Source: Candidatus Niyogibacteria bacterium CG10_big_fil_rev_8_21_14_0_10_46_36 (GTDB lineage Bacteria; Patescibacteriota; Minisyncoccia; 1-14-0-10-42-19). From it: a DNA stretch of 64,000 bases. The notes beneath the pieces were generated by a model. That model saw only the letters and a program-made list of their open reading frames with translations, did not search any database and had not been told where the DNA came from. The stretch lies in the NCBI GenBank assembly GCA_002772995.1, contig PFCO01000008.1, positions 23,150 through 87,149 on the forward strand. Reading direction: 5' to 3'. This document shows, piece by piece, positions 3,142 to 31,315 of this stretch (the first letter of the stretch is position 1; every line of letters begins with the position of its first letter). A program made the position numbers and the translations under genes.

Positions 3142-3169
3142 CTGCTCACTTGTTTGAGGAAGAATACTT

Positions 3170-3502: not shown

Positions 3503-3570
3503 ATGTATCTTGCAGTGTAAAAAATCCGCCTACACAGAGGCGGATTTTTGCGTTATCATAGAAGGCGATC

Positions 3571-3930
3571 ATGACATCAAAAACAGTTCTTATATTGCAT
3601 AGTATTGTATTCGGCTCGTTTGTGCTGTTTTCGTTAAGTTCGCCCATTTTTGCAGTATGGTATTCGGAATTTTTTTCTTCTTATTTTTTCCCGGCAGCGA
3701 TAGTTCTGACGCCAGTCGTGTTCGGGTTGTGGTATATGTTTCGGGGATGCCCGTTTACCGTATGGGAAAATTATTTTCGTAAGCGCGAGCGCAAACTGCT
3801 CATAGCAAAGAATTCGTGTATTTATCACTATGCGCTTGAGTGGTTCAATGTCCGGATTCCGCTACGGCTCATCCAGCCCGTGCTTGTTTTGCTTTTTATC
3901 ATTCCCATATTTGTGGGGCTTGTGGTATAA
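3571..3930 (+). CDS. Small membrane protein with a G-C-P-[FL]-T motif (possibly DUF2784-like)
   Basis: 119 aa, 3-4 TM segments. The GCPFTVWENYFRKRE motif is reminiscent of the CPLT..E.LR motif of DUF2784; that assignment is from memory and uncertain. Confidence 0.5.
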   Translation: MTSKTVLILHSIVFGSFVLFSLSSPIFAVWYSEFFSSYFFPAAIVLTPVVFGLWYMFRGCPFTVWENYFRKRERKLLIAKNSCIYHYALEWFNVRIPLRLIQPVLVLLFIIPIFVGLVV

Positions 3931-3939
3931 CATAATAGT

Positions 3940-4332
3940 ATGAAAGGATTTATCACCAACATAGAAAAGTTAACGCTTGAGAACACCGATTACCGGCGTG
4001 TCTTGTATACTGCGAAAAACAGCCAGCTGGTGCTTATGAGCCTCAAGCCCGGGGAAGAGATAGGCGAAGAGATACACGAGGAGCATGACCAGTTCATTCG
4101 TTTTGAAAGCGGGACGGCAAAAGTTATTTTGAACAAGACCGAAGAGCATGAAGTGGCGGGGGACGATGCGGTCGTTGTTCCTGCGGGCATGTGGCACAAT
4201 GTCATAAACACTGGAGACGAAGATCTCAAGCTCTACACTATCTATTCACCGCCCGAGCACAAAGACGGCACGCTCCAGCCGACAAAGGCGGACGAAAAAG
4301 AGGAGCATTTTGACGGACAGACGACCGAATAA
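3940..4332 (+). CDS. Cupin-domain protein (cupin_2 conserved barrel)
   Basis: The G-(X)5-H-X-H-(X)3-E...G-(X)5-P-X-G-(X)2-H-(X)3-N pattern (PGEEIGEEIHEEHDQ...VVVPAGMWHNVINTGDEDL) is a typical cupin. Terminator immediately downstream. Confidence 0.8.
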   Translation: MKGFITNIEKLTLENTDYRRVLYTAKNSQLVLMSLKPGEEIGEEIHEEHDQFIRFESGTAKVILNKTEEHEVAGDDAVVVPAGMWHNVINTGDEDLKLYTIYSPPEHKDGTLQPTKADEKEEHFDGQTTE

Positions 4333-4365
4333 ACGGCTCATACGGGGTGTGAGCCGTTTATTTTT
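4327..4365. terminator. Rho-independent bidirectional terminator: 12-bp stem AAACGGCTCATA/TGTGAGCCGTTT, then T-run, preceded by A-run
   Basis: Seen in sequence. Hairpin at 4331-4359 followed by TTTTTGG, preceded by AATAA. A near-identical element occurs at 56080-56114. Confidence 0.8.
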
Positions 4366-4383
4366 GGTATTATAATAAGAACA

Positions 4384-4746
4384 ATGAAAATGCTTACCTG
4401 GACATCGCGGATGCTCGGATTATTTTTTATCGCTTTTGTGAGCGTATTTGCGCTTGATGTATTCGGGCAAGGATATGGCAAGGGCGAATTATTGCTCGCG
4501 CTTTTTGTGCATCTTATTCCGTCGTTCCTGCTTGTCGCGGCGCTTGTTGTTTCATGGCGCAAGCCAGATGTGGGCGGCGCATTTTTTATCGCGCTCGGGG
4601 TGGTTTCTGTTTTCTTTTTTCATACATACAGAGATTTTTTCAGTTTCGGCTTGATTACTCTCCCCGCGCTCATTATCGGTGCTTTGTTTTTATTGCAGTG
4701 CGGGCAGTCGGGGATGACGCTCTTTTTGCAGCATAAGAAAAAATGA
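4384..4746 (+). CDS. Hypothetical membrane protein (120 aa, 4 TM)
   Basis: Hydrophobic ORF. Its end overlaps the start of the TauE gene by 4 nt (ATGA), suggesting translational coupling. Confidence 0.55.
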   Translation: MKMLTWTSRMLGLFFIAFVSVFALDVFGQGYGKGELLLALFVHLIPSFLLVAALVVSWRKPDVGGAFFIALGVVSVFFFHTYRDFFSFGLITLPALIIGALFLLQCGQSGMTLFLQHKKK

Positions 4747-5462
4747 CAGAGATTTCTCTCGTTATCTTTTTAGCAAGCGCGCTTGTAGCCGAGGCCGTGG
4801 GGACAATCGCGGGATTTGGTTCGGGGCTTATGCTTACGCCGATCGCGGCATTCTTCTTTGATATTAAAACGACCATTGCCATCGTAGGCCTTTTTCATTT
4901 TATCGGACAGTTTGTGGACGGTATTATCTGGTGGCGGTATATAAATTGGCGGATAGGGTTATTGTTTTCTGTCGGAGGGATATTATTTTCCTTTGTGGGA
5001 GCCTATCTTATTGCCTATATTCCGGGGCGTGGCCTTGAGATATTGCTCGGCGTTTTTTTAATAGCGTATGCAATTCTCTCGCTTATCGGGAAGGAGGCGC
5101 GCTTACCCCGCTCGGATGGCGCTATAGTAATTACGGGGGGCGTCGTCGGGTTTGTCGCGGGAGTTATCGGTACTGCGGGCGCAATACGGACCGCGGCATT
5201 ATCATCACTTCATTTAAAAAAAGAATATTTTTTAGGGACATCTTTTGCGATAGCGTTTTTCGTGGATATCACGCGTATAGGGGTGTATTTTAAAACAGGT
5301 CTGTTGGAAGTTAATTTCTTTTTATGGGGAGCTGTGCTTGTTGTCGCGGTGCTCGGGAGTTTCGCGGGGAAAGCGCTTGTGTCGCGGATTCCCGCGCCAT
5401 TGTTCAATAAAATTATTTATAGTATTTTGCTTCTTGCCGGCATCCGGTTTTTGTTTTTGTAA
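4743..5462 (+). CDS. Sulfite exporter TauE/SafE family permease
   Basis: 239 aa, about 7-8 TM segments. The repeated G-x-G-x-G-G-L motifs (GTIAGFGSGLMLTPIAAFFF...) are typical of TauE/SafE (DUF81). Confidence 0.8.
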   Translation: MTEISLVIFLASALVAEAVGTIAGFGSGLMLTPIAAFFFDIKTTIAIVGLFHFIGQFVDGIIWWRYINWRIGLLFSVGGILFSFVGAYLIAYIPGRGLEILLGVFLIAYAILSLIGKEARLPRSDGAIVITGGVVGFVAGVIGTAGAIRTAALSSLHLKKEYFLGTSFAIAFFVDITRIGVYFKTGLLEVNFFLWGAVLVVAVLGSFAGKALVSRIPAPLFNKIIYSILLLAGIRFLFL

Positions 5463-13096: not shown

Positions 13097-13678
13097 ATGA
13101 AATCAAAAGGATTTATTATGCCGCTTATTATTGTGATAATCGCGGCGGGTATTATTGGCGCTGTAGTGTACATGCAGCGATCATCCGATACATACAAGGG
13201 CGATGACGCCATGATGGAAGATGACATGACGAAGGATGATGCCATGATGGAAGGAGATGAAATGATGGAAGGAGACGCAACCATGGAAGTACCCGCGCCG
13301 GGCAATGAAGGGGTTGATGAAATGATGGAAGGCGGTGATGTGATGATGGAGGGTGAATCTCCAAAAACAGTTACTGTCACCTATACGCAGAATGGCTTTT
13401 CTCCGTCTCCCGTGAATGTGAGTGTCGGTGACACGGTCCGTTTTATGAATGAAAGCGGGCGCTCATTTTGGCCTGCATCCGCGTTTCATCCGACACACAC
13501 CGTATATCCCGGTTCGGACATAAAAAAATGCGGCACAGCAGAAGCAGCAACTATTTTTGACGCGTGCCGAGAAATTGTTTCCGGGCAGTCGTACTCTTTT
13601 ACGTTCACTGAAGCGGGGACATGGAATTATCATGACCATCTGAACGCATCGGAGTTTGGTTCTATTATAGTGAAATAG
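13097..13678 (+). CDS. Exported Met-rich protein with C-terminal cupredoxin-like domain
   Basis: N-terminal anchor or signal MKSKGFIMPLIIVIIAAGIIGAVV. Residues 36-87 contain 12 Met in D-x-MMEG-[DG] repeats. The C-terminal roughly 100 aa resembles a cupredoxin-like beta-sandwich (VTVTYTQNGFSPSPVNVSVGDTVRFMN...GTWNYHDHLNASEFGSIIVK), but the canonical type-1 copper Cys ligand is not obvious. Confidence 0.7.
   Translation: MKSKGFIMPLIIVIIAAGIIGAVVYMQRSSDTYKGDDAMMEDDMTKDDAMMEGDEMMEGDATMEVPAPGNEGVDEMMEGGDVMMEGESPKTVTVTYTQNGFSPSPVNVSVGDTVRFMNESGRSFWPASAFHPTHTVYPGSDIKKCGTAEAATIFDACREIVSGQSYSFTFTEAGTWNYHDHLNASEFGSIIVK
13202..13357 (+). repeat. In-frame tandem-like coding repeats encoding a Met-rich low-complexity region (four MMEG units)
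   Basis: Nucleotide repeats gatgccatgatggaaggagat / gaaatgatggaaggagac / gatgaaatgatggaaggcggt / gtgatgatggagggtgaa. Confidence 0.7.
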
Positions 13679-13680
13679 CC

Positions 13681-14295
13681 ATGCGCGAAACCCGCACAGG
13701 ATTTGGAACGGTCATTCTGATAGTTTTTGCGGCGATTATTCTTTTGGGTGGCGGCGCATACATTGTTTTAGAGAAGAACACCGCTACTGATCGCGGCAGC
13801 GAGGAGCGTATGGATACCGAAAAAGATACGGGCATGACGGAGGAAGAAGCACCGAAAAAAGATGATAAAGATAATACCGCGAGCAAGGATTCAATGGATG
13901 GCGCAGACACAGAGACATCTTTTAGCAGCGTGGTGCTTGCGGGGTCGGAGTCACTGCTCCTTGATTTTTCAAAAATGGATTACGAAAAAGCTCTTTCCTC
14001 AAAAAAGATAGTAGTGCTTTACTTTTATGCGAACTGGTGCCCGATATGTAAGGCGGAATTTCCGAAGATGCAATCGGCGTTCAACGGGTTTTCAGATGCA
14101 GATATTATCGGTTTCCGTGTGAACTTTAACGATAACGAAACCGACCAATACGAAAAAGACCTTGCGCGCCAGTTCGGTGTTGCCTATCAGCATACGAAAG
14201 TCATCTTGAAAAATGGAGAGCGGGTACTCAAATCTCCTGAGTCATGGGAAGAGAACCGCTACATATCCGAAATTAATGCCATAGCAGTGAATTAA
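13681..14295 (+). CDS. Membrane-anchored thioredoxin-fold thiol:disulfide oxidoreductase (TlpA/ResA-like)
   Basis: N-terminal TM helix; VVLYFYANWCPICKAEFPK carries a CxxC (CPIC) motif in a thioredoxin-like context. Confidence 0.8.
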   Translation: MRETRTGFGTVILIVFAAIILLGGGAYIVLEKNTATDRGSEERMDTEKDTGMTEEEAPKKDDKDNTASKDSMDGADTETSFSSVVLAGSESLLLDFSKMDYEKALSSKKIVVLYFYANWCPICKAEFPKMQSAFNGFSDADIIGFRVNFNDNETDQYEKDLARQFGVAYQHTKVILKNGERVLKSPESWEENRYISEINAIAVN

Positions 14296-14297
14296 TT

Positions 14298-15002
14298 ATG
14301 CTTGATGTGTCGTTCATCGTCGCTTTTTTAGCAGGGTTGGTATCGTTTTTATCTCCCTGTGTGCTCCCGATAGTCCCGGGCTTTTTGGCGTATCTTTCAG
14401 GAACATCTACTTCGGAATCCGCAAGCCGGCTCCGTATCTTTTTGAACAGCTTTGTGTTTGTTCTCGGATTTTCGGTCGTATTTGCCCTGTTGGGTGTGCT
14501 CCTGAACACGCTTTTAGAATCGGTTGCGTATGATGTTCAGATATGGCTCGCGAGGATTGGCGGTGCGATCATTATCTTTTTTGGGTTGTATCTTGCTGGG
14601 CTCTTTCATATCCCGTTCTTAGAACAGCAGCATAAATTCGCCGTAAAAAAGAAATTCGCAAATTCATACATCACCTCATTTTTATTCGGCGCTGCGTTTG
14701 CTGCCGGGTGGACTCCATGCGTGGGTGCAGCGCTTGGCGCTATTCTTGGACTGGCGGCCACCGCTCCCGGGAAAGCATTTTATCTCTTGTTTATGTATTC
14801 ATTAGGGCTTGGCGTTCCGTTTCTGATCGTGGGGCTTTTTGTTTCCCGCGCAGAGGCTTATATCAACCGGTATGCAGGAGCACTTTCGTATGTAAGCAAG
14901 GCATTCGGCATCATTCTGATCGTTCTCGGAGTGCTTGTTTTTACCCAGAGCTTGAATTTGATAGCAAATTTCGGTTTTCTTAATAACTTGTTGCTGCAGT
15001 GA
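14298..15002 (+). CDS. ccdA: Cytochrome c-type biogenesis / thiol-reductant transfer membrane protein CcdA (DsbD transmembrane-core family)
   Basis: LSPCVLPIVPGF and GWTPCVGAALGA are the two conserved Cys motifs of CcdA/DsbD-beta. Six TM helices. Confidence 0.85.
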   Translation: MLDVSFIVAFLAGLVSFLSPCVLPIVPGFLAYLSGTSTSESASRLRIFLNSFVFVLGFSVVFALLGVLLNTLLESVAYDVQIWLARIGGAIIIFFGLYLAGLFHIPFLEQQHKFAVKKKFANSYITSFLFGAAFAAGWTPCVGAALGAILGLAATAPGKAFYLLFMYSLGLGVPFLIVGLFVSRAEAYINRYAGALSYVSKAFGIILIVLGVLVFTQSLNLIANFGFLNNLLLQ

Positions 15003-16132
15003 TGACTGTATCAAAACAAACAATCTTTTCTGTTGTAGTACTGGTGCTTGTTGTGGGTGCGATAGTGTATCTTGAATCACGGAAAGCGGACATCCCGTCA
15101 TTATTGGGGAACCAAGATGTAACTATCTTGAACGAAGGAGAGCGCGTTGCCGAAAAAGAAAAAAAATTTGAACCGGCAAAAGAAATATCAACGCCGGACG
15201 GATTTATCAATACCGATGGTGTTACGATAAGCGAGCTTATCGGTAAAAAAATCATCTTGGTTGATTTTTGGACATATTCCTGTATCAATTGCCAGCGCAC
15301 TACCCCGTATTTAAATTCATGGTATGAAAAATATGCGGACGACGGGCTGGTTATTTTGGGTCTTCACACGCCCGAGTTTGAATTTGAGAAAGATTATGAC
15401 AACGTGGCTCGTGCGGTGGAGAAATTTGGCATTGAATATCCGGTTGTATTAGATAACGACTATTCTACATGGCGATCGTATGAGAACCGGTATTGGCCAC
15501 GCAAATACTTGATAGATATAGATGGCTTTATTGTGTATGACCACATTGGTGAAGGAGCGTACGAAGAAACGGAACAGAAGATAGTAGAATTGTTAAATGA
15601 ACGGAGCGCCGTATTAGGAGAAGATGCGGTTACGCTGGACGAAAAAAACCCGGAGTATATCCAGGATGTTGAGTTTGATAAGGTGCAGTCTCCCGAAATG
15701 TATTTTGGGTACGACCGTTTGCAATATATTGGAAATACATTTTTACGCTCATGTTTGGATTCGGTTTGCGATTTTGATGCAAAAACAGATATTCAGCGAA
15801 ATACATTTAATTTAGATGGCTCGTGGCAGATAGGGCCGGAGGATACGGTGCTCAAGAACGGCGAGGGTGCAATCATACTCGGGTTTTCTGCGTCAAAAGT
15901 AAATCTTGTTGCCGGGACTGACGGTGGCGAGATAGAAGCAGAGATATATCTTGATGGAGAGCGGGTTGATGCGGCATACAAGGGCGCGGATGTTGATGAA
16001 AATGGTGTTGTGCGGTTCGGCGCACATGACCTGTATAATCTGATAGATTTGCATGGAGACTACGGCGAGCATGTCCTCTGGATAATGATAAAGCAGCCCG
16101 GACTCCAGGCATTTGCGTTTACGTTCGGGTAA
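14999..16132 (+). CDS. Membrane-anchored thioredoxin-like protein (CINC active site) with an extra C-terminal beta-rich domain; DipZ C-terminal-like
   Basis: N-terminal TM helix; WTYSCINCQRTTPYL CxxC motif; YWPRKYLIDIDGFIV is redoxin-like. A C-terminal domain of about 150 aa resembles the carbohydrate-binding-like domain found after the thioredoxin domain in mycobacterial DipZ (recognition from memory). Overlaps the ccdA stop by 4 nt. Confidence 0.75.
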   Translation: MMTVSKQTIFSVVVLVLVVGAIVYLESRKADIPSLLGNQDVTILNEGERVAEKEKKFEPAKEISTPDGFINTDGVTISELIGKKIILVDFWTYSCINCQRTTPYLNSWYEKYADDGLVILGLHTPEFEFEKDYDNVARAVEKFGIEYPVVLDNDYSTWRSYENRYWPRKYLIDIDGFIVYDHIGEGAYEETEQKIVELLNERSAVLGEDAVTLDEKNPEYIQDVEFDKVQSPEMYFGYDRLQYIGNTFLRSCLDSVCDFDAKTDIQRNTFNLDGSWQIGPEDTVLKNGEGAIILGFSASKVNLVAGTDGGEIEAEIYLDGERVDAAYKGADVDENGVVRFGAHDLYNLIDLHGDYGEHVLWIMIKQPGLQAFAFTFG

Positions 16133-16153
16133 TATGCAAAATGTATAAATAAC

Positions 16154-16179
16154 AAAAATACCGCCTATGCGGTATTTTT
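16154..16179 (+). terminator. Rho-independent terminator (ATACCGC-ctat-GCGGTAT, then TTTTT)
   Basis: Seen in sequence between the thioredoxin-like gene and msrA. Confidence 0.8.
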
Positions 16180-16193
16180 GTTATGATGACGAT

Positions 16194-16736
16194 ATGAATA
16201 AAAAAGTAATTGTTTTTGGCGGAGGCTGTTTTTGGTGCACCGAAGCCGTGTTCAAAATGCTTAAGGGTGTTCTTTCTGTAACCCCGGGTTATGCGGGCGG
16301 TACGACAAAAGACCCTTCCTATGAAGACGTATCAGCGCATAAAACAGGACATGCCGAAGTCGTGCGCATTGAATATGATGCTGATATCATGCCGCTCCAT
16401 GATTTGTTAACGGTATTTTTTGCAACGCATGACCCGACAACGCCCAACCGCCAGGGAAATGATGTCGGTGAACAGTATCGCTCCATTATTTTGTACACGG
16501 ACGAAGAGCAAAAAAAAGAAGCGGAAGCGTTTATCGAAAAATTAAACGGATCAATGGAGGAAGGCGAGCCAATAATAACCGCAATACAGCCGCTTGATGC
16601 GTTTTATGAAGCAGAAGATTATCACAAAGATTATTTTGAGAAAAATCCGCAAAATCCCTATTGTCAAATAGTTATCAACCCCAAGCTCGACAAGGTCCAA
16701 AAGGAATTTGCAGAGCTGGTAAAAGAAAATGAATAG
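16194..16736 (+). CDS. msrA: Peptide methionine sulfoxide reductase MsrA
   Basis: GGGCFWCTEAVF active-site motif, GYAGG, HAEVVRIEYD. ATG 16194 is chosen because the longer track ORF overlaps the terminator hairpin. No signal peptide. Confidence 0.9.
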   Translation: MNKKVIVFGGGCFWCTEAVFKMLKGVLSVTPGYAGGTTKDPSYEDVSAHKTGHAEVVRIEYDADIMPLHDLLTVFFATHDPTTPNRQGNDVGEQYRSIILYTDEEQKKEAEAFIEKLNGSMEEGEPIITAIQPLDAFYEAEDYHKDYFEKNPQNPYCQIVINPKLDKVQKEFAELVKENE

Positions 16737-17274
16737 TATGCACGAACACACTCATGGGCAGGAACACGCGGGACATGTGGATACGTCAGCGATTCGCCGT
16801 TCATTCCGCGATTTTATTCCCCTTGTGGTTATTTTTGGGGTTATTGCTCTTTTCACGATTATGCAAAGCATGCGAGCGGGTGCGTGGGAGACCGCGTATC
16901 TTATGCGCAATTTTATGGGAGCATTTTTTATCGTATTCGGAGGATTTAAAATCATACGATGGAAGGGCTTTGTGGATGCATACCAGATATACGACATTGT
17001 CGCAAAACGAAGTAGGGTGTATGGGTATACATACCCCATAATAGAGTTAGGGCTTGGGTTTTCGTATCTTTTTTCGTTCCAACTTGCTCTTGTTCAAGTA
17101 ATAACAATAGCAATCATGTGCATCGGGGCTATTGGAGTAGGGCAGGAGCTAGTGAAAAAGAACACCATCCCATGTGCTTGTCTTGGTGTGGTGTTTAAAA
17201 TACCTATGACCAAAGTAACGTTTTTTGAAGACATTCTCATGGCGGCAATGGCTGCGGGGATGTTTTTTGTGTAA
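16729..17274 (+). CDS. MauE/DoxX-like redox-associated membrane protein with His-rich N-terminus
   Basis: Four TM helices and a conserved-looking PCACLG Cys pair near the C-terminus. The N-terminal MHEHTHGQEHAGH is His-rich. Family assignment is by resemblance only. Confidence 0.55.
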   Translation: MNSMHEHTHGQEHAGHVDTSAIRRSFRDFIPLVVIFGVIALFTIMQSMRAGAWETAYLMRNFMGAFFIVFGGFKIIRWKGFVDAYQIYDIVAKRSRVYGYTYPIIELGLGFSYLFSFQLALVQVITIAIMCIGAIGVGQELVKKNTIPCACLGVVFKIPMTKVTFFEDILMAAMAAGMFFV

Positions 17275-17287
17275 TACTGAATTGTGT

Positions 17288-18049
17288 ATGTTTGAATTAA
17301 CTAACAGGGTGGCGTTAGTGACAGGAGCGCGTCGAGGTATGGGGCGTACGCATGCGCTTGCGTTGGCGCATCAAGGCGCTTCCGTTGCGGTAACTGACAT
17401 TGATGCGAATGAGTGCATGCCGGTTGTGGAAGAAATAACAAAAGCGGGAGGCAAGGCGGCATGTTTCAAAATGGATGTTTCCAATAAAGCAGAAGTGGAA
17501 GCAGTGTTTGATGATGTTATCAAACAGTTTGGGAGGCTCGATATTTTGGTGAACAATGCGGGTATTTATAAATCGCGCCCCGCGCTAGATATAACGGAAA
17601 AAGAATGGGACCAAATGATAGATATAGATCTCAAGGGGCAATTTTTGTGCGCTCAGCGCGCAGCACGCGAGATGGCAAAAAATTCTTGGGGTAGGATTAT
17701 TAACATTGCCTCAATTGCTTCGGGGCAGACGGGTGTGGGTATTTTGGGTGGCACCCACTATACAGCGGCAAAGGGCGGAGTTATCGGGATGACGGAATCG
17801 CTTGCTATAGAATTTGCGCCATTGGGTATTTTGGTAAACGCTATAGCCCCGGGCGCTATTGATACGCCGATGGTAAATGCAGCAGAGATGCCAAAGGAGG
17901 CAATGGAGGGGCTCATTGCTTCTTTGCCGCTGAAACGGATAGGAAAGTCCGAAGAAGTGTCTGCCGCTGTAGTGTTTTTGGCTTCGGATGAGGCAAGCTA
18001 TATTACCGGTTCTACGATATATGTAGATGGCGGGTGGCTTGCGGCGTAG
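17288..18049 (+). CDS. SDR-family oxidoreductase (FabG-like 3-oxoacyl-ACP reductase family)
   Basis: TGARRGMG Rossmann motif, NNAG, catalytic Y-x3-K (YTAAKGG), PGAIDTPM. Start at ATG 17288 after the upstream stop. Confidence 0.85.
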   Translation: MFELTNRVALVTGARRGMGRTHALALAHQGASVAVTDIDANECMPVVEEITKAGGKAACFKMDVSNKAEVEAVFDDVIKQFGRLDILVNNAGIYKSRPALDITEKEWDQMIDIDLKGQFLCAQRAAREMAKNSWGRIINIASIASGQTGVGILGGTHYTAAKGGVIGMTESLAIEFAPLGILVNAIAPGAIDTPMVNAAEMPKEAMEGLIASLPLKRIGKSEEVSAAVVFLASDEASYITGSTIYVDGGWLAA

Positions 18050-18288: not shown

Positions 18289-19053
18289 CTACTCAAAGAA
18301 AAGCAAGGAGAACATTGCGGCAATTCCTACGAGGATAAAGAGTATTTCAAGGAGCGATTGTTTTGTGCCGTGCTGCTTATGAAGCTCGGGGATAAGATCT
18401 GCGGTTGCAATATAGATAAAGTTTCCCGCTGCAAGCGCAATGATAAAGGGGAGCAGCGGCTCTATGGTACCCCCAAAGATAACTACAAGAAGAACGCCCG
18501 TTATAGCAACTAGTGCAGAGAGGAAATTAAACCAGAGCGCTTTTGCTTTTGAATATCCTGCGTGAATCAGTATGCCAAAATCCCCGATTTCTTGAGGAAT
18601 TTCATGAAGGATTATCGCAAGTGTTGTCGCAATGCCCACCTCAACACTTATAAGATAGCTTGCGCCGATAATAATGCCGTCTACGAGGTTGTGGAGGCCG
18701 TCCGAAAGCAGAATGAGCCTGCCCACAGGAAGAATGTCTTGGCAGTCTTCGCAATCTGTAGGTTTTTCGTGGTGGTGATGGTGCCAGCCGAGTATTTTTT
18801 CAAATATAAAAAAGAATACAATGCCCGCGATAACGAGAAGCGGAATAAGCGGCGAGCCGCCGCCCGTCTCGAGTGCCTCGGGAATCAGGTGCAAAAAAGC
18901 GTCGCCGAGAAGCGCACCTATCGCAAGCGCGACAAGAAAAAATACCGCTTTGCGTATCTTTTTTTCATCTATTGAGATGATGATAAGTCCGATAAGCGCG
19001 ATAAGGCTTACCGCAAAAACACTTATGAGAGCATAGAATGTGTGTGTTTCCAT
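18289..19053 (-). CDS. ZIP-family divalent metal (zinc) transporter, ZupT-like
   Basis: HHHHHE His-rich loop and HEIPQEIGDFGILI signature of ZIP transporters. Ribosome-binding site AAGAGGA upstream on the minus strand. Confidence 0.85.
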   Translation of the reverse strand: METHTFYALISVFAVSLIALIGLIIISIDEKKIRKAVFFLVALAIGALLGDAFLHLIPEALETGGGSPLIPLLVIAGIVFFFIFEKILGWHHHHHEKPTDCEDCQDILPVGRLILLSDGLHNLVDGIIIGASYLISVEVGIATTLAIILHEIPQEIGDFGILIHAGYSKAKALWFNFLSALVAITGVLLVVIFGGTIEPLLPFIIALAAGNFIYIATADLIPELHKQHGTKQSLLEILFILVGIAAMFSLLFFE

Positions 19054-19133
19054 ATATCCTCTTTTTATATTAAAATGGACCTTTGCATTTGACTATAGCG
19101 CATACGCACACCATGTCAAGTAGATGCGAATTA

Positions 19134-19163
19134 TTTGCATTTATTTTGTGTGTGCGCTATTAT
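19134..19163 (+). promoter_or_regulatory. Candidate promoter TTTGCA-18nt-TATTAT for the small Cys-rich ORF, within the Zur/ZIP divergent region
   Basis: Seen in sequence; weak -35 box. Confidence 0.3.
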
Positions 19164-19192
19164 ATTGAAAATCCCAAACCAAGGAGGTATAT

Positions 19193-19381
19193 ATGAGCAA
19201 GACCACTGATGGCCTGAGTGTTTTTTTGTGCCATACGGGGAGTTGTTGTGCGAGCATCAGTTCCACAGAAGACGGAGGTATGCGTATTGAGGATGCTGAT
19301 AAGCCAGAACGCGGCGGTATCACTCTTACCCGGGATGAGGTTGCGGAGCTTAAGCGAGCAATACAGAACGGCAATATATAG
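19193..19381 (+). CDS. Small Cys/His-containing protein (62 aa), stand-alone unit in the Zur/ZIP locus
   Basis: Strong ribosome-binding site AAGGAGG 5 nt before ATG and its own terminator hairpin at 19394-19417. N-terminal motif FLCHTGSCC resembles the second small ORF at 21654. Confidence 0.55.
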   Translation: MSKTTDGLSVFLCHTGSCCASISSTEDGGMRIEDADKPERGGITLTRDEVAELKRAIQNGNI

Positions 19382-19390
19382 TTCTTTTAT

Positions 19391-19417
19391 AAGGCCGCGC
19401 ACGAACGCGGCTTTATT
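19391..19417 (+). terminator. Rho-independent terminator (GCCGCG-cacgaa-CGCGGC, then TTTATT)
   Basis: Seen in sequence. Confidence 0.7.
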
Positions 19418-19433
19418 GTGACATTGTGTGGGA

Positions 19434-19439
19434 TATAAT
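19434..19439 (+). promoter_or_regulatory. TATAAT -10 hexamer 6 nt upstream of the Fur-family ATG, implying a leaderless mRNA
   Basis: Seen in sequence: ggaTATAATggtcgtATG. Confidence 0.4.
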
Positions 19440-19445
19440 GGTCGT

Positions 19446-19865
19446 ATGAAGCAAAAAAAAGAAAAATTTAAAACAATACTTCATGATGCGGGTTATAGAG
19501 TTACGGCAGAGAGAATGGCGACGCTCCTGCTTCTTTCTCGTTCAAAAAAGCCCCTTTCCGTGCATGATATCGCGCGCGTATTGCGAAGCGTGCTTGACCA
19601 AGCGACAGCATACCGCATACTTCGATTATTTGAGCGATCAGGAATTGTCCGGCGTGTTGAATTTGGTAAAGGACGCGTGTATTACGAAATAGCTGATGCG
19701 AAAGACCATCACCATATCGTATGCACTGAATGCGGTGCTATAGAGGATTTTGAAGGATGTACCGCAGAACGCATAGAAAAAGAGGCGCTTAAACAATCAA
19801 GGCGCTTTTCTTCCGTGCGGAAACACTCGTTAGAATTATTCGGCGTTTGCAAATCATGCGCATAA
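19446..19865 (+). CDS. zur: Fur-family metalloregulator, probably Zur
   Basis: Fur-family winged-helix N-terminus with a C-terminal HHHIVCTECG...C metal site. Divergent from a ZIP zinc transporter, which suggests Zur. Confidence 0.8.
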   Translation: MKQKKEKFKTILHDAGYRVTAERMATLLLLSRSKKPLSVHDIARVLRSVLDQATAYRILRLFERSGIVRRVEFGKGRVYYEIADAKDHHHIVCTECGAIEDFEGCTAERIEKEALKQSRRFSSVRKHSLELFGVCKSCA

Positions 19866-20977
19866 ATGCACGCATTATATTGCATATGTGGTGTGCCGGT
19901 CTTTTTATTCTAGGGCCTGTATTTGTTTTGGCTCAAGAACAAGCAATTCCCGAAATGTTTCGATTGAAAGTGCTGGATATTACTCAGGAAGGAGAACGCC
20001 CCATTATCGGGACGGACGCCAAAGCGTTTTTTCAAAATATACGAGGCGAAGTTCTTTCGGGCGAGAAAAAAGGCGATACTATAGAACTTGAAAACGATAG
20101 GATGCGTCTTCGTGTGGGAGATACTATATTTGTGCGCGCGTTGGAAGCGCCCACCGGGGAAACATTTTATACTGTGGATGACGTCGATAGGCGCAATTCT
20201 TTGTTCTTTTTTGTAGGATTATTTATGTTGCTTGTGATCGTATTCGGGGGGAAGCAAGGCATCCGCGCGCTTATGAGTCTTGCCGGCAGTTTTTTTGTTA
20301 TTTTTTATTTTTTGCTTCCGTCTATTCTTTCGGGCGTATCGCCACTCTTGGTGAGCGCAGGTGTTTCTATTGTTATTCTGGTGATCGCTATTTATTTTAC
20401 TCATGGCTTGACGCGCACATCAACAGCGGCACTCCTCGGTACCATTGTTACTATTTGTGTTACCGTGCTTTTAGCGCTCATTTCGGTACGGGCAACCCGT
20501 TTATCCGGTTTTACCGATGACACAAGTGTTTTTTTGAATTTTAATACCGCGGGCGCTTTGGATTTTCAGGGATTATTACTGGGAGCCATTATTATTGGTG
20601 TTTTGGGACTTCTTGATGATATAGCAATAACGCAAGCGGCTGCGGTAAAAGAGATTTTTCATGTGGACGCCTCGCTTTCGCGGAAAGATGTGTATGCTCG
20701 CGCGCTTCGTATAGGCAAGGAGCATGTAGGAGCGTTAGTGAATACGCTTGCACTTGCGTATACGGGCGCGGCACTTCCGTTATTGCTTCTCTTTTATGGA
20801 TCTGAAGCATCTGTTTTTTTGATAATAAATAGAGAAATATTTGCATCAGAAATTATCCGCACTATGGTAGGAAGTATTGGCATTATTCTTGCGGTGCCCA
20901 TTACTACGGGTCTTGCGGTATTATTTTTGGTGCAGAAAAAAAGAAGGGATCCGGAAAAAGGAAACATCTGTGCTTGA
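19856..20977 (+). CDS. YibE/F-like polytopic membrane protein
   Basis: N-terminal TM helix, extracytoplasmic segment of about 100 aa, then 6 TM helices. Resemblance to the YibE/F family is from memory only. Start is ambiguous (19847 or 19856) and overlaps the zur stop. Confidence 0.55.
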   Translation: MRINARIILHMWCAGLFILGPVFVLAQEQAIPEMFRLKVLDITQEGERPIIGTDAKAFFQNIRGEVLSGEKKGDTIELENDRMRLRVGDTIFVRALEAPTGETFYTVDDVDRRNSLFFFVGLFMLLVIVFGGKQGIRALMSLAGSFFVIFYFLLPSILSGVSPLLVSAGVSIVILVIAIYFTHGLTRTSTAALLGTIVTICVTVLLALISVRATRLSGFTDDTSVFLNFNTAGALDFQGLLLGAIIIGVLGLLDDIAITQAAAVKEIFHVDASLSRKDVYARALRIGKEHVGALVNTLALAYTGAALPLLLLFYGSEASVFLIINREIFASEIIRTMVGSIGIILAVPITTGLAVLFLVQKKRRDPEKGNICA

Positions 20978-21071: not shown

Positions 21072-21551
21072 ATGCTATATTTTCCAAAGTTCTTCCACAG
21101 GAGGTTTTTGATGCAGAAAACAAACAAGGCGTTTTTGTTCTTTGTTCTGTTAATTGGATTTCTTTTCGTGGGATTTTCTAGCGGAGCCGATGAAACGCCG
21201 ATATTGCCTGATTATACTGACGCGCCATTTCAGTTTGTGGCGGACAATGTGACAGGAAGCTCTGTTTTTCATCCGGAACAAGCGTTAACGAGGATCGAAT
21301 GGTATGACACCGGAAATATTCAGCGGCCTGATATGGTAGCAGAGCCGAGCATGAACCATTTTGTCAGAGAAACCGTGTTCATATATACGCGAGAGAACGG
21401 CGTGCGTTATGCGGAATGGATACATCGCAGTACCGCTGTGTATAGGTATGCTTTTGTCCGGCGGACCAGAATCTACGGCTTCGTATGGGATAGCGCGAGA
21501 AATATGTTTATTTTTGACAAAAAGAAGGAGTTCAACTCATCCACGTATTAG
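21072..21551 (+). CDS. Hypothetical secreted protein (159 aa)
   Basis: Signal-like N-terminus; terminator at 21568-21600. Confidence 0.6.
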   Translation: MLYFPKFFHRRFLMQKTNKAFLFFVLLIGFLFVGFSSGADETPILPDYTDAPFQFVADNVTGSSVFHPEQALTRIEWYDTGNIQRPDMVAEPSMNHFVRETVFIYTRENGVRYAEWIHRSTAVYRYAFVRRTRIYGFVWDSARNMFIFDKKKEFNSSTY

Positions 21552-21567
21552 AAAAAAACTAAAATTC

Positions 21568-21600
21568 AAAAGCTCCCGCCAAGGAGCTTTTATTATTTTT
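21568..21600 (+). terminator. Rho-independent terminator (AAGCTCC-cgccaa-GGAGCTT, then TTTTATTATTTTT)
   Basis: Seen in sequence. Confidence 0.8.
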
Positions 21601-21653
21601 GTTATGGTACACTATAAAAATACGATCCGATTATTATTTGTTATAAGAATACT

Positions 21654-21857
21654 ATGGAACATTTTGTTTGTACTGGTGGCTGTGGGGGTATATCGGGCAC
21701 TCCAGGCGTCTGTCAGACAGAAAGCTGCCCGCATCACAAACATTCTCTTGAATCCTGTTCGTGCACCGATGGGAGCCATGACGATGTCAAAAGAAAGGCA
21801 GAATTGGAAGAGCTGAAACAAACGGAAGAGGGGTACAGGAATGCTGACGGCGTATGA
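21654..21857 (+). CDS. Small Cys-rich putative metal-binding protein (67 aa; 7 Cys, 4 His)
   Basis: MEHFVCTGGCGGISGTPGVCQTESCPHHKHSLESCSC...; the stop overlaps the uppP start (ATGA). No clear ribosome-binding site. Shares the F-[LV]-C-x-T-G-[SG]-C motif with ORF 19193. Confidence 0.4.
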   Translation: MEHFVCTGGCGGISGTPGVCQTESCPHHKHSLESCSCTDGSHDDVKRKAELEELKQTEEGYRNADGV

Positions 21858-22654
21858 TTGAATCAGTTGTTCTGGGACTGCTGCAAGGCTTTGCAGAATG
21901 GCTTCCGATAAGCTCGGAAGGACTTTTGGTACTTGCGCAAGTAAATCTATTTGGCGAAACATCGATTATCCATGCCGTTGAGCTTTCACTTTTTTTACAC
22001 TTAGGGACATTTTTTGCAGCTCTCATATATTTCCGGAAAGATGTTAGGCGTATTATACTGAATTTATTTTCTTACTCGCGTATTGATAATGTATCCCGCA
22101 GAGAGATCCGGTTTTATGCTGTTGCAACATTGGTGAGTGGCGTGTTGGGCTTTTCTCTCTTGTTTATTGTTTCTCGCGCGCTCGGTGAAGTAAGCTCTTT
22201 TGAGTTTGTGGGGAAGATAATCACTGGCGGTATTGCGGCATTGCTTTTTATTACCGCAGGATTAGGATTTTTACGCAAGGTAAAAGGAACGCGCACTAAG
22301 GAATTTCTTTCGCTGGGGGATGGTATTATTCTCGGGATTGTCCAAGGGTGTTCAGCGCTCCCCGGACTTTCCCGTTCAGGAACAACTGTTGCAGCATTTT
22401 TGCTCCGTGCATTCGATGATGCGTCTGCGCTGCGGTTGAGCTTTATTATGAGTTTGCCCATAGTGCTTGGAGGAAACATTGTTTTGCAGGTGAGTTCTTT
22501 CTCGGTAAGCGCTGAATTGTTTATGGGTCTTATTGCTGCGTTTGTGTCGGGATTTGTTACGATACATATCTTATTGCGTATTGCCCGAAGGGTGCAATTT
22601 TCTTGGTTTGTGCTTTTCTTTGCCGTGCTTACTGTGGCATCGCTCTTTCTTTGA
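21854..22654 (+). CDS. uppP: Undecaprenyl-diphosphatase UppP (BacA)
   Basis: GLLQGFAEWLPISSEGLLVLA and PGLSRSGTTVAAFL are conserved BacA motifs. Confidence 0.9.
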   Translation: MIESVVLGLLQGFAEWLPISSEGLLVLAQVNLFGETSIIHAVELSLFLHLGTFFAALIYFRKDVRRIILNLFSYSRIDNVSRREIRFYAVATLVSGVLGFSLLFIVSRALGEVSSFEFVGKIITGGIAALLFITAGLGFLRKVKGTRTKEFLSLGDGIILGIVQGCSALPGLSRSGTTVAAFLLRAFDDASALRLSFIMSLPIVLGGNIVLQVSSFSVSAELFMGLIAAFVSGFVTIHILLRIARRVQFSWFVLFFAVLTVASLFL

Positions 22655-22705: not shown

Positions 22706-22960
22706 ATGATGCGTAAACACGGAAAGGGGAATCATTTTTTCTTCGGTACTACCACCATGGGTGAAAAGGGCCAGGTTGTTGTTCCTGCGAAAGCCCGCAA
22801 AGCGATGGAGCTTAAAAAGGGAGAAAAACTTCTTGTGTTCGGCACGGGGCATGACATGCTCGCGTTCACTAAGCTTTCTCATATTGAAGAGTTTGCGGCA
22901 CACCTCTCAAAGCGTTTGGGCGCTATCCGCTCGATCGTAAGAAAAACAAGATCAAAGTAA
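22706..22960 (+). CDS. AbrB/MazE/SpoVT-family small DNA-binding protein
   Basis: GQVVVPAKARKAMELKKGEKLLV matches the swapped-hairpin AbrB-type domain. The stop overlaps the HlyD start (TAATG). Confidence 0.7.
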   Translation: MMRKHGKGNHFFFGTTTMGEKGQVVVPAKARKAMELKKGEKLLVFGTGHDMLAFTKLSHIEEFAAHLSKRLGAIRSIVRKTRSK

Positions 22961-24537
22961 TGCATTATCCTTCTATGTTGATTTTTTCTTTTGTACGAAG
23001 ACATATAATAGTGAGCATCATTATTGCCGTAGTTGTTATCGGCGGCGGTTTTTTGATATTTGGTGGCGGAGACAAATCTACAATCGATTTTGCTGAGGTT
23101 CTTCGCCGCGATCTCGTGCAAGAAGTAAGCGTTACCGGCAACGCGGAACCCGCGCATGCAGTTGATCTTGCGTTTGAGCGCACGGGAAGGGTGGCGCGTA
23201 TTTATGTTAGTGTCGGAGAAGAGGTATCCGCGGGCGCATCGTTGGTTGCGCTTGAAAATAGCGATATAGTTGCGCAATTACGGGATGCGGAGGCTCGGGT
23301 GAGCATTGAACAAGCGGTGCTCGATGAACTTTTGCGCGGGACTCGTCAGGAAGAGGTCCGGGCGCAGGAGATCAAGGTAGAAAACGCACAAACAACGCTT
23401 AATGACGCAAAGAAAAACCTGGTTGATGTTATTCTCGATGCATTTACAAAGGGGGATGATGCGATACGCAATAAGCTTGATCAAATTTTCGTAAATCCTC
23501 AGGGAGGAAATTATAATATTCATTTTACGGTTAACAATCCTCAGCTTGAAAGCGACATTGAAACAGGGCGTGCCTCCATAGAAACAACTCTTGATGCATG
23601 GCAGGTCTCGCTTGCCGGATTGTCAGCGCAAAACGATCCATCCTCTTTTTACGCGATAGCAAAAACAAATATTACCGACATCCGTTCTTTGTTGGACAAA
23701 GCGGCGCTTGTCGTAAATCAGACACAGGCAGGACCCACTATCTCGCAAGCAACGCTTGACGGGTATAAAACGGACATAGCTGCGGCGCGTACTGTGGTCA
23801 ATACTGCCTCGTCAAACCTTTCTTCGGCTCAGGAAAAATTACAAAATGCGATATCCTCTCTTTCATATGAAGAACAGCAGCTTATAGTCAAAACAGCAGG
23901 GGCTACGTCGGAAGCTATTCGCGTACAAGAAGCAAAATTAGACCAGGCAGAAGCAGCGGTAATCGCGCGGCAAGCAGATCTCGCAAAAACCATATTGCGC
24001 TCGCCGCTTCACGGCATTATCACCAAGCAAGACACAGAGGTAGGCCAGATTGTTACCGCGGGGCCCCACGTTGTTTCGCTGATATCCGAATCGGAATTCG
24101 AAATAAAAGTGAATATTCCGGAAACTGATATTACAAACGTGAAGATAGGGAATAGCGCGCGGGTGACTCTTGATGCCTATGGAAAAGAAGAAGAATTTGG
24201 CGCACATGTTGTTATGATAGACCCGGCGGAAACGGTCATCGAAGGAGTGGTGACATACAAAACAACGCTTCAATTTGATGAACGGGATGAACGCATAAAA
24301 CCGGGCATGACCGCGAATGTTGATATTTTAACTGCGGAACGGAAAAACGTGCTTGTTATCCCCACACGATCCGTTTCTACGAAGAACGGGACTCAATTTG
24401 TACGCGTCCTCCACGAGGACGGTTCTATAGAGGAGCGCGCCATAGAAACGGGTCTTCGCGGATCATTTGGCGATATAGAAGTGACAAGTGGGCTTAAGGA
24501 AGAGGAGAAGATCGTCACTTTCTTTGACGAAGAGTAG
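22960..24537 (+). CDS. HlyD-family periplasmic adaptor (membrane fusion protein, MacA-like)
   Basis: N-terminal TM helix, long coiled-coil region and C-terminal beta-barrel motifs; immediately followed by ABC ATPase and FtsX permease genes. Confidence 0.85.
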   Translation: MHYPSMLIFSFVRRHIIVSIIIAVVVIGGGFLIFGGGDKSTIDFAEVLRRDLVQEVSVTGNAEPAHAVDLAFERTGRVARIYVSVGEEVSAGASLVALENSDIVAQLRDAEARVSIEQAVLDELLRGTRQEEVRAQEIKVENAQTTLNDAKKNLVDVILDAFTKGDDAIRNKLDQIFVNPQGGNYNIHFTVNNPQLESDIETGRASIETTLDAWQVSLAGLSAQNDPSSFYAIAKTNITDIRSLLDKAALVVNQTQAGPTISQATLDGYKTDIAAARTVVNTASSNLSSAQEKLQNAISSLSYEEQQLIVKTAGATSEAIRVQEAKLDQAEAAVIARQADLAKTILRSPLHGIITKQDTEVGQIVTAGPHVVSLISESEFEIKVNIPETDITNVKIGNSARVTLDAYGKEEEFGAHVVMIDPAETVIEGVVTYKTTLQFDERDERIKPGMTANVDILTAERKNVLVIPTRSVSTKNGTQFVRVLHEDGSIEERAIETGLRGSFGDIEVTSGLKEEEKIVTFFDEE

Positions 24538-24538
24538 T

Positions 24539-25249
24539 ATGGCTTTTATTGAGCTTAAAAATATAGCAAAAGAATATTCGGACGGAACCCGGGCTTTGCG
24601 CGGGGTTTCTTTTGATGTGGATGAAGGCGAATTTGTGGGGATTATGGGGCCTTCCGGATCGGGGAAATCTACGCTTTTACACATCCTCGGATTTTTGGAT
24701 ACGCAATCAAAAGGGACTTACACATTTGAACGCAAGACGTTTGATGATTACGGCCCGGAGGGCATTGCGCGGCTGCGTAATGAAAAAATGGGATTCGTGT
24801 TCCAGATGTTTAATTTGCTTTCCCGCGCGAGCGTATTGGAGAACGTAAAACTTCCCCTCACATATTCTTCGGTGCCGTCATCAGAGTGGGACAAGCGGGC
24901 GCTTGAAGCGATTGAATCAGTAGGGCTCGCGCATCGCGTGGAACATGAGCCATCAGAACTTTCTGGGGGGGAAAAACAACGCGTTGCTATAGCCCGCGCG
25001 CTGGTTAATAATCCCGAGATTATTTTTGCCGATGAACCGACTGGTAACCTGGATTCGAAATCAGGGAAGGCGGTCATGGAGATTTTGCAGGAGCTGAATG
25101 AAAAAAGGGGCCATACGGTATTTTTAATAACGCACGAAACATATACCGCGGAACACGCAAAACGGATCATTACCATTCGCGATGGCGAGATAGCAAGTGA
25201 CTTTGAAGTGAAAAAACGCAGATGGGCCCGCGATCATTTTGCAAAGTAA
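24539..25249 (+). CDS. ABC transporter ATP-binding protein (MacB/LolD-type)
   Basis: Walker A GPSGSGKST, ABC signature LSGGEKQRVAIARA, Walker B IIFADEPTG. ATG 24539 is 2 nt after the HlyD stop. Confidence 0.9.
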   Translation: MAFIELKNIAKEYSDGTRALRGVSFDVDEGEFVGIMGPSGSGKSTLLHILGFLDTQSKGTYTFERKTFDDYGPEGIARLRNEKMGFVFQMFNLLSRASVLENVKLPLTYSSVPSSEWDKRALEAIESVGLAHRVEHEPSELSGGEKQRVAIARALVNNPEIIFADEPTGNLDSKSGKAVMEILQELNEKRGHTVFLITHETYTAEHAKRIITIRDGEIASDFEVKKRRWARDHFAK

Positions 25250-30058: not shown

Positions 30059-31315
30059 ATGCATGAAACCTACATCATTGATGCAGGGCGGACTTGGACT
30101 GGTAAATATCTTGGTGCATATAAAGATATTCCGATATCTGATCTTGCCGGGTCGTTCTTGCAGCAATTTCTTAACAAGGCAGGGCTCGATGTTTTCCGCA
30201 TAGATGGATGCTATATGGGCATTGTCTATAGTGCGGGCGCAGAACAGCATCCGGCACGGCAAGCCGCCATAAAAGCAGGACTAGGGTATGCCGTAGATGC
30301 AGTAAGTTTGTGTAAGGTATGCGCATCAGGTCTTGCTGCGGTAGAGTATGGCGAATTCAAAATATTACGCGGGAAGGATTTGGTCATTGCGGGCGGCATG
30401 GAATCCATGTCGAGAACCCCGTATCTTCTTTCACGAGAGAGACATATCGGCATAGATATTCTTAGCAAGGAAAAATCTAACTTCGCAGTTACCCTAAAAG
30501 ATTATTTTGAGCTGCATGAGGATATGGATGCCGAGGCATTTCTATCCAAAACAAAGATATATGACAGCATGAATCTTGATGGTTTGTGCGATGCGTATGC
30601 TGAAGATAATGCTTTGATGGGGCACATAGCGGAGGAATATGTAAAACGCGAAGATATATCGCGCGAAGATATGGATGAGTATGCATACGAAAGTTTTGTC
30701 CGCGCAAAAGAGTATCAGAAAAAGATTGAGCGGCAAATCGTTTCCATCGATGGCATAGACATTGATTTTGACCAAGGATGGAGAACGCCTGACCGGGGAA
30801 AGATGAGGTCGTTACGGCCTGCCTTTGCTCCGGATGGAAAAATAACATCAGCGAACGCTTCGCAGGTTTCTGACGGAGTCAGCGCTGTGCTACTTGGGTC
30901 TAAGAAAGCGCATGCCTATTTTAAGAACAGAGGAAAAGAGGCTCTCGGACGGATACGCGCGTGCGCCACATTTTCCGGACATCCGAATGAGTATCTCTCC
31001 GCTCCTATATATGCAATAGCTGAAGCATGCAGACAGGCGGGCGTACTCGTTTCTGATATTGACCTCTTTGAAGTGAATGAGGCATTCGCGATAGTTCCCA
31101 TGGAAGTCATGAAGGCATTTTGTGTGTCGCGTGACAGGATGAATATCTGGGGCGGGGCAATTGCCAACGGGCATCCGCTTGGCGCTTCGGGAACAAAAAT
31201 ACTTTCGAATCTTGCATATCAGTTGCAAGATACCGGCGCGCGGTATGGTATCGCGGCTGCATGCAACGGCGGCGGCGAAGCAATGGCCATAGTAGTAGAG
31301 AATCCTCCGAAGTAA
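30059..31315 (+). CDS. Acetyl-CoA C-acetyltransferase (thiolase)
   Basis: Ribosome-binding site AAGGAGG 9 nt upstream of ATG 30059. Active-site Cys context CKVCASGLAAV; C-terminal NEAFA...GHPLGASG and CNGGGEA thiolase signatures. Confidence 0.85.
   Translation: MHETYIIDAGRTWTGKYLGAYKDIPISDLAGSFLQQFLNKAGLDVFRIDGCYMGIVYSAGAEQHPARQAAIKAGLGYAVDAVSLCKVCASGLAAVEYGEFKILRGKDLVIAGGMESMSRTPYLLSRERHIGIDILSKEKSNFAVTLKDYFELHEDMDAEAFLSKTKIYDSMNLDGLCDAYAEDNALMGHIAEEYVKREDISREDMDEYAYESFVRAKEYQKKIERQIVSIDGIDIDFDQGWRTPDRGKMRSLRPAFAPDGKITSANASQVSDGVSAVLLGSKKAHAYFKNRGKEALGRIRACATFSGHPNEYLSAPIYAIAEACRQAGVLVSDIDLFEVNEAFAIVPMEVMKAFCVSRDRMNIWGGAIANGHPLGASGTKILSNLAYQLQDTGARYGIAAACNGGGEAMAIVVENPPK

Follow-up and report, generated by a model that had tools for sequence, protein, structure and literature searches.

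Two short open reading frames (ORFs) in a 64,000-nucleotide stretch of DNA from Candidatus Niyogibacteria bacterium CG10_big_fil_rev_8_21_14_0_10_46_36 (contig PFCO01000008.1; the whole stretch is referred to here as the window) can be compared with several types of small protein that have already been described. These are ORF1 (19193–19381, plus strand, 62 residues) and ORF2 (21654–21857, plus strand, 67 residues). The small genes of Zur and Fur regulons include those for zinc-independent ribosomal protein paralogues and COG0523 chaperones. Bacterial metallothioneins of the SmtA/BmtA type are small, contain Cys and His, and are linked to zinc homeostasis. Other compact Cys/His proteins include small zinc-ribbon and zinc-knuckle modules, the zinc-finger micro-proteins of archaea, and the HMBD domain (PF19335) of P-type ATPases, whose motif is Y-x-C-x2-H...P-G-x-C-x2-C. 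Finally, the PC4-like class of folds comprises the C-terminal domain of human PC4 and yeast Sub1 (PF02229), YdbC (DUF2128, PF09901), BPSL1147, the PC4 homologue of phage T5 and the repeats of PUR-alpha. Members of this beta-beta-beta-beta-alpha class (type II) have no apparent sequence conservation and function as dimers (PMC7549692).

ORF1 resembles the small Zur/Fur-regulon genes in being short, in its position behind a predicted Fur-family operator and in its divergent orientation to a zinc-type importer, although it has no homology to any of them, and its closest known fold is that of the PC4-like class. ORF2 is comparable with the zinc-ribbon and zinc-knuckle modules in having approximately 42 residues of Cys/His knuckles. 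A preliminary description of the two ORFs, with peptides that agree exactly with our translations, had grouped them as paralogous, Cys-rich proteins. The sequence comparisons reported here indicate instead that they are independent genes without detectable common ancestry, which, if correct, removes a false paralogy. Taken as a whole, the explanation that we favour, and consider reasonably likely to be correct, is that the ORFs are independent, that ORF2 belongs to a family of its own, and that ORF1 is an orphan linked to a Fur-family operator and has a fold of the PC4-like class. The overall finding is ordinary to modest, and neither ORF is very surprising; the ORF2 family and an operator found in the candidate phyla radiation (CPR) provide useful leads for annotation.

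ORF2, its family and the relationship to ORF1

A search with the ORF2 sequence alone identified five homologues, and a profile search identified at least 284 proteins at E ≤ 1, all of them hypothetical and none with a Pfam domain. Nearly all members are 50–75 residues long, and their hosts are CPR bacteria (Liptonbacteria, Azambacteria, Niyogibacteria, Doudnabacteria, Jorgensenbacteria and Paceibacterota) and DPANN archaea. In an alignment of 108 sequences, the columns H3, C6, G8, C10, G12, G18, C20, C25, C35, C37 and H42 are invariant, and the pattern H-x2-C-x3-C-x9-C-x4-C-x9-C-x-C-x4-H is matched by 107 of the 108 members. The family consensus, HYICTGGCxGVSxTPGVCQAExCPKHGxPLxECxCxDGxH, is followed by a variable acidic tail. 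ORF2 contains the full signature and scores 123 bits against the family profile (E = 1.3e-30) and 84.5 bits against a local hidden Markov model (HMM). Its composition is six Cys and five His (9% Cys), which corrects an earlier count of seven and four. Three longer members of the family (P0056 and P0062, each of 107 residues, and P0045, of 104) appear to have mis-called starts or to reflect read-through into the following gene, and do not look like true domain fusions.

Neither ORF2 nor any of the 108 family members has a Pfam match at E ≤ 10, the HMBD and zinc-ribbon models included. Furthermore, ORF2 has no match in NCBIfam, in PHROGs or, by sequence, in the PDB, and nothing relevant was found in the literature on a CPR family of Cys-rich small proteins. 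The [YF]-[IV]-C-x3-C...P-G-x-C-x4-C arrangement in the family recalls that of HMBD, but the ligand spacings differ, and the family has an extra second site (H3, C35, C37 and H42) as well as an acidic helical tail. The occurrence of eight invariant Cys/His ligands within 42 residues is most simply explained by two tetrahedral zinc sites; the N-terminal 42 residues of ORF2 would then form a knuckle-type mini-domain held together by two tetrahedral Zn(II) sites. An AlphaFold2 model made with the alignment has a predicted local distance difference test (pLDDT) score of 79.5; it shows short beta-bridges where the knuckles lie and a helix at the C-terminus (residues 43–63). Judged by its sequence, ORF2 is a true member of a CPR/DPANN family of Cys6His2 mini-proteins that is widespread but unannotated. 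The family is strongly conserved, has eight ligands, occurs commonly among ultra-small bacteria and archaea, and merits a family model.

The proposed relationship of ORF1 to ORF2 was based on a shared motif, F-[LV]-C-x-T-G-[SG]-C. When written as F[LV]C.?TG[SG]C, the motif matches only at ORF1 and ORF2 in the six-frame translation of the window; this expression was composed post hoc from the two sequences and requires a one-residue indel. The similarity is not above chance. A BLASTP comparison of the two proteins gives E = 0.57, in a register that differs from that of the motif. When residues 1–45 of ORF2 were aligned by the Smith–Waterman method with 1252 six-frame ORFs of the window, ORF1 ranked 42nd, and the ORFs above it are mostly spurious. 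The HMM built from the 108 sequences gives ORF1 a score of −1.3 bits (rank 436 of the 1252 six-frame ORFs), and 4438 of 5000 shuffled versions of ORF1 score at least as highly; just the tetrapeptide TGSC/TGGC (TG-x-C) aligns.

The spacing and identity of potential ligands also separate the two proteins. ORF1 has C-x4-C-C where all 108 members of the ORF2 family have C-x3-C, and it is without P17-G18-x-C20, C25, C35-x-C37 and H42, that is, five of the eight family ligands together with the conserved P17. It can hardly be called Cys-rich, since it contains just three Cys (C13, C18 and C19, with the spacing C13-x4-C18; 4.8% Cys) and one His (H14), with no Cys beyond residue 19 and no His beyond residue 14. 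The possibility that an ORF2-type gene survives in frameshifted form at the position of ORF1 was considered and rejected, as no frame of 19100–19480 scores on the family HMM, and because an intact ORF2 lies 2.3 kb downstream, ORF1 is not a displaced ORF2 orthologue. ORF1 therefore lies outside the ORF2 family by score, spacing and ligands. The preliminary description had itself named absence from related genomes, or a motif that is not retained there, as grounds for abandoning its proposal; no orthologue of ORF1 was found and the motif match is a chance one that is not retained, so the claim of paralogy fails by its own test. The occurrence of the motif at two loci had also been offered as an argument that both ORFs are real genes. 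That argument is invalid, and both are probably real genes on other grounds.

The ORF1 locus and a candidate Fur-family operator

As had been described, ORF1 is a stand-alone unit between genes for a ZIP-family metal importer, which is divergent from it (18289–19053, minus strand; Pfam Zip, 3.7e-50), and a Fur-family regulator (19446–19865, plus strand; Pfam FUR, 2.3e-23), for which gene calls start at the ATG at 19446. The earlier assignment of the regulator as ‘Fur-family, probably Zur’ stands for the family and is not established for Zur: NCBIfam models for Fur score 63–76 bits, PerR 57 and Zur 38, all of them far below their cut-offs. The linkage to ZIP suggests that the metal is zinc, without proving it.

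The intergenic region contains a palindrome, ATGCGAATTATTTGCAT (19124–19140), which is a candidate operator for this CPR Fur-family regulator. It overlaps the −35 element of ORF1 and lies 5 nucleotides upstream of the −35 element of ZIP. The ZIP promoter-like site is strong and divergent (TTGACA-16-TATAGT, 11 of 12 consensus matches; 19092–19119, minus strand). A candidate promoter for ORF1 that had been reported previously is present at 19134–19163 on the plus strand, as TTTGCA-18-TATTAT or TTGCAT-17-TATTAT, identified purely by its consensus (9 of 12 matches); eight promoter-like sites were found in the region and 6.8 are expected, so that sites of this type are no rarer than chance. The palindrome is the best match within the 64 kb window both to its own consensus and to TGCAAAT-N-ATTTGCA (0 or 1 mismatch).

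Palindromes of the TGCAAAT-N-ATTTGCA type occur in the fur/ZIP promoter regions of at least eight other CPR loci. Examples are ATGCAAATGATTTGCAT at locus L033 (3935–3951), TTGCAAATGATTTGCAT at L028 and L039, TGCAAGTCATTTGCA at L009, TTGCAAATCGTTTGCAA at L047 and L052, TTGCAAAAAATTTGCAA at L079, and ATGCAACCGAGTTGCAT at L084. We know of no published description of a TGCAAAT-N-ATTTGCA operator in Patescibacteria. As this type of palindrome is conserved in the fur/ZIP promoters of many CPR genomes, metal-dependent expression of ORF1 is plausible. If a Fur/Zur regulon is defined by a Fur-family operator in the promoter, the predicted site would place ORF1 in such a regulon. Since the site overlaps the −35 element of ORF1 and abuts the divergent ZIP promoter, co-repression of the two genes is most likely: a metal-loaded Fur-family protein would repress ORF1 at 19124–19140, and metal scarcity would derepress it along with the ZIP importer. 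This is suggested by the position of the palindrome and the conservation of its type.

The palindrome has a second, degenerate copy, TTGCAAATCATGCGCAT (19847–19863, two mismatches), which is located at the junction between the stop of fur and the start of the next gene, within a series of TGCA/ATGC repeats. A third operator-like site (31213–31227) lies within coding sequence, upstream of an M3 peptidase, and was treated as chance. No ribosome-binding site precedes fur, and a perfect TATAAT (19434–19439) ends 6 nucleotides before its ATG (within 19425–19448), which together suggest a leaderless transcript. The sequence TGTGTGGGATATAAT ahead of fur resembles TGTGTGCGCTATTAT in the ORF1 promoter.

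The gene that follows fur encodes a YibE/F-like membrane protein (19847–20977, plus strand; Pfam YibE_F, 9.5e-69). A three-gene module of ZIP, Fur and YibE/F recurs among CPR genomes, with a gene order and orientation that vary; it was found in the window (18289–20977) and at L028, L032, L033, L039, L044, L047, L052, L070, L079 and L084. This recurrent linkage hints at a role for YibE/F in metal transport. In the other CPR modules, only ∼100–160 nucleotides separate the operator from fur, which is either directly downstream of it or divergent from it, and ORF1 therefore looks like a species-specific insertion, or a new gene, between operator and fur. If this reading is right, the candidate operator and the module may help in reconstructing the metal regulons of Patescibacteria, which cannot be grown by themselves.

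Coding status and predicted fold of ORF1

Several intrinsic features support the view that ORF1 is a gene. Its ribosome-binding site had been described as strong, and AAGGAGGT (19181–19188, plus strand), read from the sequence, is indeed perfect and 5 nucleotides before the ATG at 19193. The terminator of its own that had been attributed to it is also recognizable, as a hairpin at 19389–19416 with an 11-bp stem and a 6-nucleotide loop, followed by the U-rich run UUUAUUGU; the predicted stability is −17.3 kcal/mol (z = −4.15), and none of 200 shuffled sequences was equally stable. The codon-usage log-odds of 0.149 per codon is the highest of the six frames. Compared with 62-codon segments of 42 long genes in the window it falls at the 14th percentile, and it is exceeded by only 0.5% of 193 spurious overlapping ORFs. 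ORF1 is called as a gene on eight contigs, all of one strain and 99.9–100% identical over 12 kb. AlphaFold2, run without an alignment, produced a confident, compact model with a mean pLDDT of 83.2, and confident single-sequence models are generally unusual for random ORFs. Because of the codon score, ribosome-binding site, terminator and model, we consider it quite likely that ORF1 is a real gene.

Extensive searches for relatives of ORF1 found none. A word-index search returned ORF1 as the sole match. When 1.84 billion cluster representatives were searched exhaustively with phmmer, the matches were ORF1 and three proteins (P0008–P0010) that were rejected as homologues, as they are giant adhesin or beta-propeller repeat proteins of 1700–2950 residues for which weak, low-complexity repeat matches had been summed. 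No relative was found in viral contigs or phage, or at 80 ZIP loci of other CPR genomes. The window is from a Patescibacteria (CPR, Paceibacteria-like) genome, and the best relatives of its ZIP transporter are in CPR metagenome-assembled genomes, at 54–59% identity. The closest relative found, L086, has a ZIP protein that is 77% identical, a UppP protein 67% identical and an ORF2 homologue 71% identical; at its ZIP locus a different gene comes after ZIP, and the whole ORF1–fur–yibE/F block is missing. Scans of Pfam, NCBIfam and PHROGs gave nothing significant for ORF1, as for ORF2, and matches of ORF1 to FlgM (E = 0.086) and DUF7448 (E = 0.12) were dismissed as noise. A likeness to DUF397, suggested by the pattern C-x-[VI]-[ES]-[VI]...G-x-x-[LF]-T-x-x-E, was rejected because there is no Pfam match to that family even at E ≤ 10. 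On this distribution ORF1 is a species-restricted orphan gene. It is typical of orphans, and its interest lies mainly in the possibility that a young gene was recruited to a regulatory site that already existed.

The absence of homologues raises the question of whether ORF1 functions at all, or is a chance ORF in an expanded gap between ZIP and fur, or in the 5′ leader of fur, with a fortuitous ribosome-binding site. In addition to the empty search of 1.84 billion representatives, no related locus contains ORF1, ZIP and fur being separated there by only ∼100–160 nucleotides, two longer antisense ORFs overlap it, and there is no population variation. However, its codon score is within the range of real genes, above 99.5% of the spurious ORFs and the best of the six frames. 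Furthermore, a perfect and well-spaced ribosome-binding site, a stable terminator beyond the stop, a compact single-sequence model and a match of the C-terminal 21 residues to the beta4–helix segment of PC4 all argue for a gene, and a chance ORF is in our view unlikely. A structured RNA or riboswitch leader at this position was also considered and rejected: there is no Rfam match and the mRNA is not unusually structured (folding z = −0.75).

In the model of ORF1, strands at residues 9–14, 17–24, 30–33 and 42–45 are followed by a helix at 47–59. This corresponds to the arrangement that defines the PC4-like class, a four-stranded antiparallel sheet and then a C-terminal helix within ∼60–70 residues. 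The folds that match the model include a Whirly protein and KhtT-N, and all except KhtT-N are of the PC4-like class. The sole echo in sequence is KPERGGITLTRDEVAELKRAI, which aligns to PC4 where the two structures correspond. This match of the C-terminal 21 residues to the C-terminal domain of human PC4 has a BLASTP E value of 1e-4 in a single comparison (the PC4 sequence having been checked against PDB entries 1pcf and 6ycs), and a shuffle test of the match gave 3 in 20000 for PC4 and 25 in 20000 for MoSub1.

ORF1 differs from the PC4-like proteins in several respects. It is acidic, with 10 Asp/Glu and 7 Lys/Arg giving a net negative charge, it has no equivalents of the DNA-contacting residues F77, R86 and W89, and its beta3–beta4 loop is much shorter. 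D36 is placed opposite W89 of PC4 and acidic residues opposite F77 and R86, in a region where the alignment is uncertain. ORF1 is therefore assigned to the fold class only: it is predicted to have a PC4-like fold, and is not counted as a member of the PC4 family or as an established binder of single-stranded DNA, an activity that its sequence makes doubtful. Our best guess for its role is a dimer-based interaction with protein or nucleic acid. To our knowledge, no PC4-like protein has come from a Fur/Zur regulon.

The preliminary description had also implied a likeness to bacterial metallothioneins. With only three Cys in 62 residues, ORF1 differs from them, as does ORF2, where six Cys have a fixed, zinc-finger-like spacing in place of the C-x-C runs of thiolate clusters; Pfam metallothionein models match neither protein (4.8% and 9% Cys). 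ORF1 has far too few Cys and His to be a metallothionein-like store, and its composition does not suggest metal binding. A more limited role in metal handling, unrelated to ORF2, can be envisaged, in which the hairpin tips of a dimer (C13-H14...C18-C19) hold a single zinc, and the protein acts as a chaperone or buffer induced with ZIP. The gene is beside ZIP and behind a conserved Fur-family operator, PC4-like folds dimerize, and C13 and C18/C19 are on adjacent strands of the beta1–beta2 hairpin in the predicted model. Against this, there are only four potential ligands in each chain, with no conservation to show that they are important, and the small proteins known from Zur regulons belong to other families. 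We regard this role as distinctly improbable, and prefer an orphan with a predicted PC4-like fold.

Genomic settings of ORF2 and flanking genes

ORF2, which had been reported as coupled to uppP (bacA; 21854–22654, plus strand; Pfam BacA, 3.4e-45), does overlap it, the stop and start codons sharing ATGA. This adjacency is limited to the window, L086 and L099. ORF2 has no ribosome-binding site; a TATAAG ends 8 nucleotides before its ATG (within 21624–21656), and its start may be leaderless. No match to the Fur-family operator with three or fewer mismatches was found upstream of 21654, and none was found in the intergenic regions between ZIP and the ORF2 homologue at L097 and L100. A terminator-like hairpin (21568–21591, plus strand) separates the ORF2–uppP unit from the preceding gene.

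A survey of 72 distinct loci of the ORF2 family, 480 kb in total, found heterogeneous contexts and no conserved neighbour that would reveal its function. PurH is a neighbour at seven loci, and an M50 protease, Maf and GNAT at six each, and these four are largely from one syntenic clade. A plastocyanin-type cupredoxin is found at five loci, mostly immediately adjacent (for example, L157, 5336–5944), and a superoxide dismutase (Ni-SOD or Fe/Mn-SOD) occurs occasionally (L090, 5277–5741; L103, 2748–3401). ZIP is also a neighbour at five. At L097 and L100, ZIP and the ORF2 homologue are immediate neighbours in divergent orientation; at L094 and L095 the order on one strand is homologue, methyltransferase, ZIP; and at L086, as in the window, the ORF2-type gene is 2–3 kb from ZIP. 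The gene that recurs beside ZIP is thus of the ORF2 type, and not ORF1. The link to ZIP is thus suggestive of metal biology. Of the five ZIP-linked loci, four are closely related to one another, which leaves only about two independent events.

These settings allow a broader proposal, which is speculative and rather unlikely. ORF2-type proteins might handle metal as a new class that extends across CPR and DPANN, acting for example as a cytosolic zinc buffer or chaperone for importers such as ZIP, and ORF1 might be a recently born or extremely fast-evolving gene captured by a Fur-family operator, with a role in the response to metal starvation through a PC4-like dimer. If true, such a class would account for the recurrence of ORF2-type genes beside ZIP, cupredoxin and SOD. 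The idea that ORF1 and ORF2 are paralogues within one small, Cys-rich metal-binding family, with ORF1 as the zinc-regulated copy, is barely credible: the literal motif is confined to these two places, and ORF2-family genes at L097 and L100 have the position that ORF1 has in the window, but there is no statistical similarity by BLASTP, HMM or Smith–Waterman comparison, the invariant C-x3-C is broken and C20, C25, C35, C37, H42 and P17 are missing, no family remnant is detectable in any frame of 19100–19480, and an intact ORF2 lies downstream.

The explanation that we favour, of independent ORFs with ORF1 as an operator-linked orphan of PC4-like fold, also has points that weigh against it. For ORF1, an orthologue was not found anywhere, so there is no comparative evidence; the near-identity of the eight contigs leaves no usable polymorphism from which to assess selection; and the case for coding depends on intrinsic signals together with one alignment-free structure prediction. 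Transcription might not end at the hairpin that follows it. The Pfam PC4 profile scores 12.2–12.4 bits (E = 0.11–0.14; cut-off 25) and covers only residues 36–55, equivalent to profile positions 32–51, and the acidic character of ORF1, together with the missing counterparts of F77 and W89, is a further difficulty. The function of the operator is a prediction from sequence, and zinc as the metal sensed is suggested by the linkage to ZIP. For ORF2, it is the ligand pattern by itself that points to zinc, and a search for structural neighbours gave none that were significant, with weak Foldseek matches to chains that contain zinc ribbons.

Other genes nearby can be noted. The gene that precedes the ORF2–uppP unit (21072–21551) encodes a 159-residue protein with no Pfam match; its N-terminus, ETPILPDYT, is similar to the ETPVLPDFT of an ORF at the equivalent position in L086 (2646–3041 / 2878–4920), where the counterpart precedes, or is fused to, a protein of 680 residues. 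Upstream of the metal module, at ∼13200–17300, is a thiol-redox cluster that includes thioredoxin/AhpC-TSA, DsbD-like, redoxin and MsrA genes and one for a MauE-like membrane protein. Beyond uppP (22706–25249), a gene for an AbrB/MazE-like protein of 84 residues is followed by genes for a membrane-fusion protein and an ABC transporter of the MacB type, and this synteny is kept in L086 (6068–9912).

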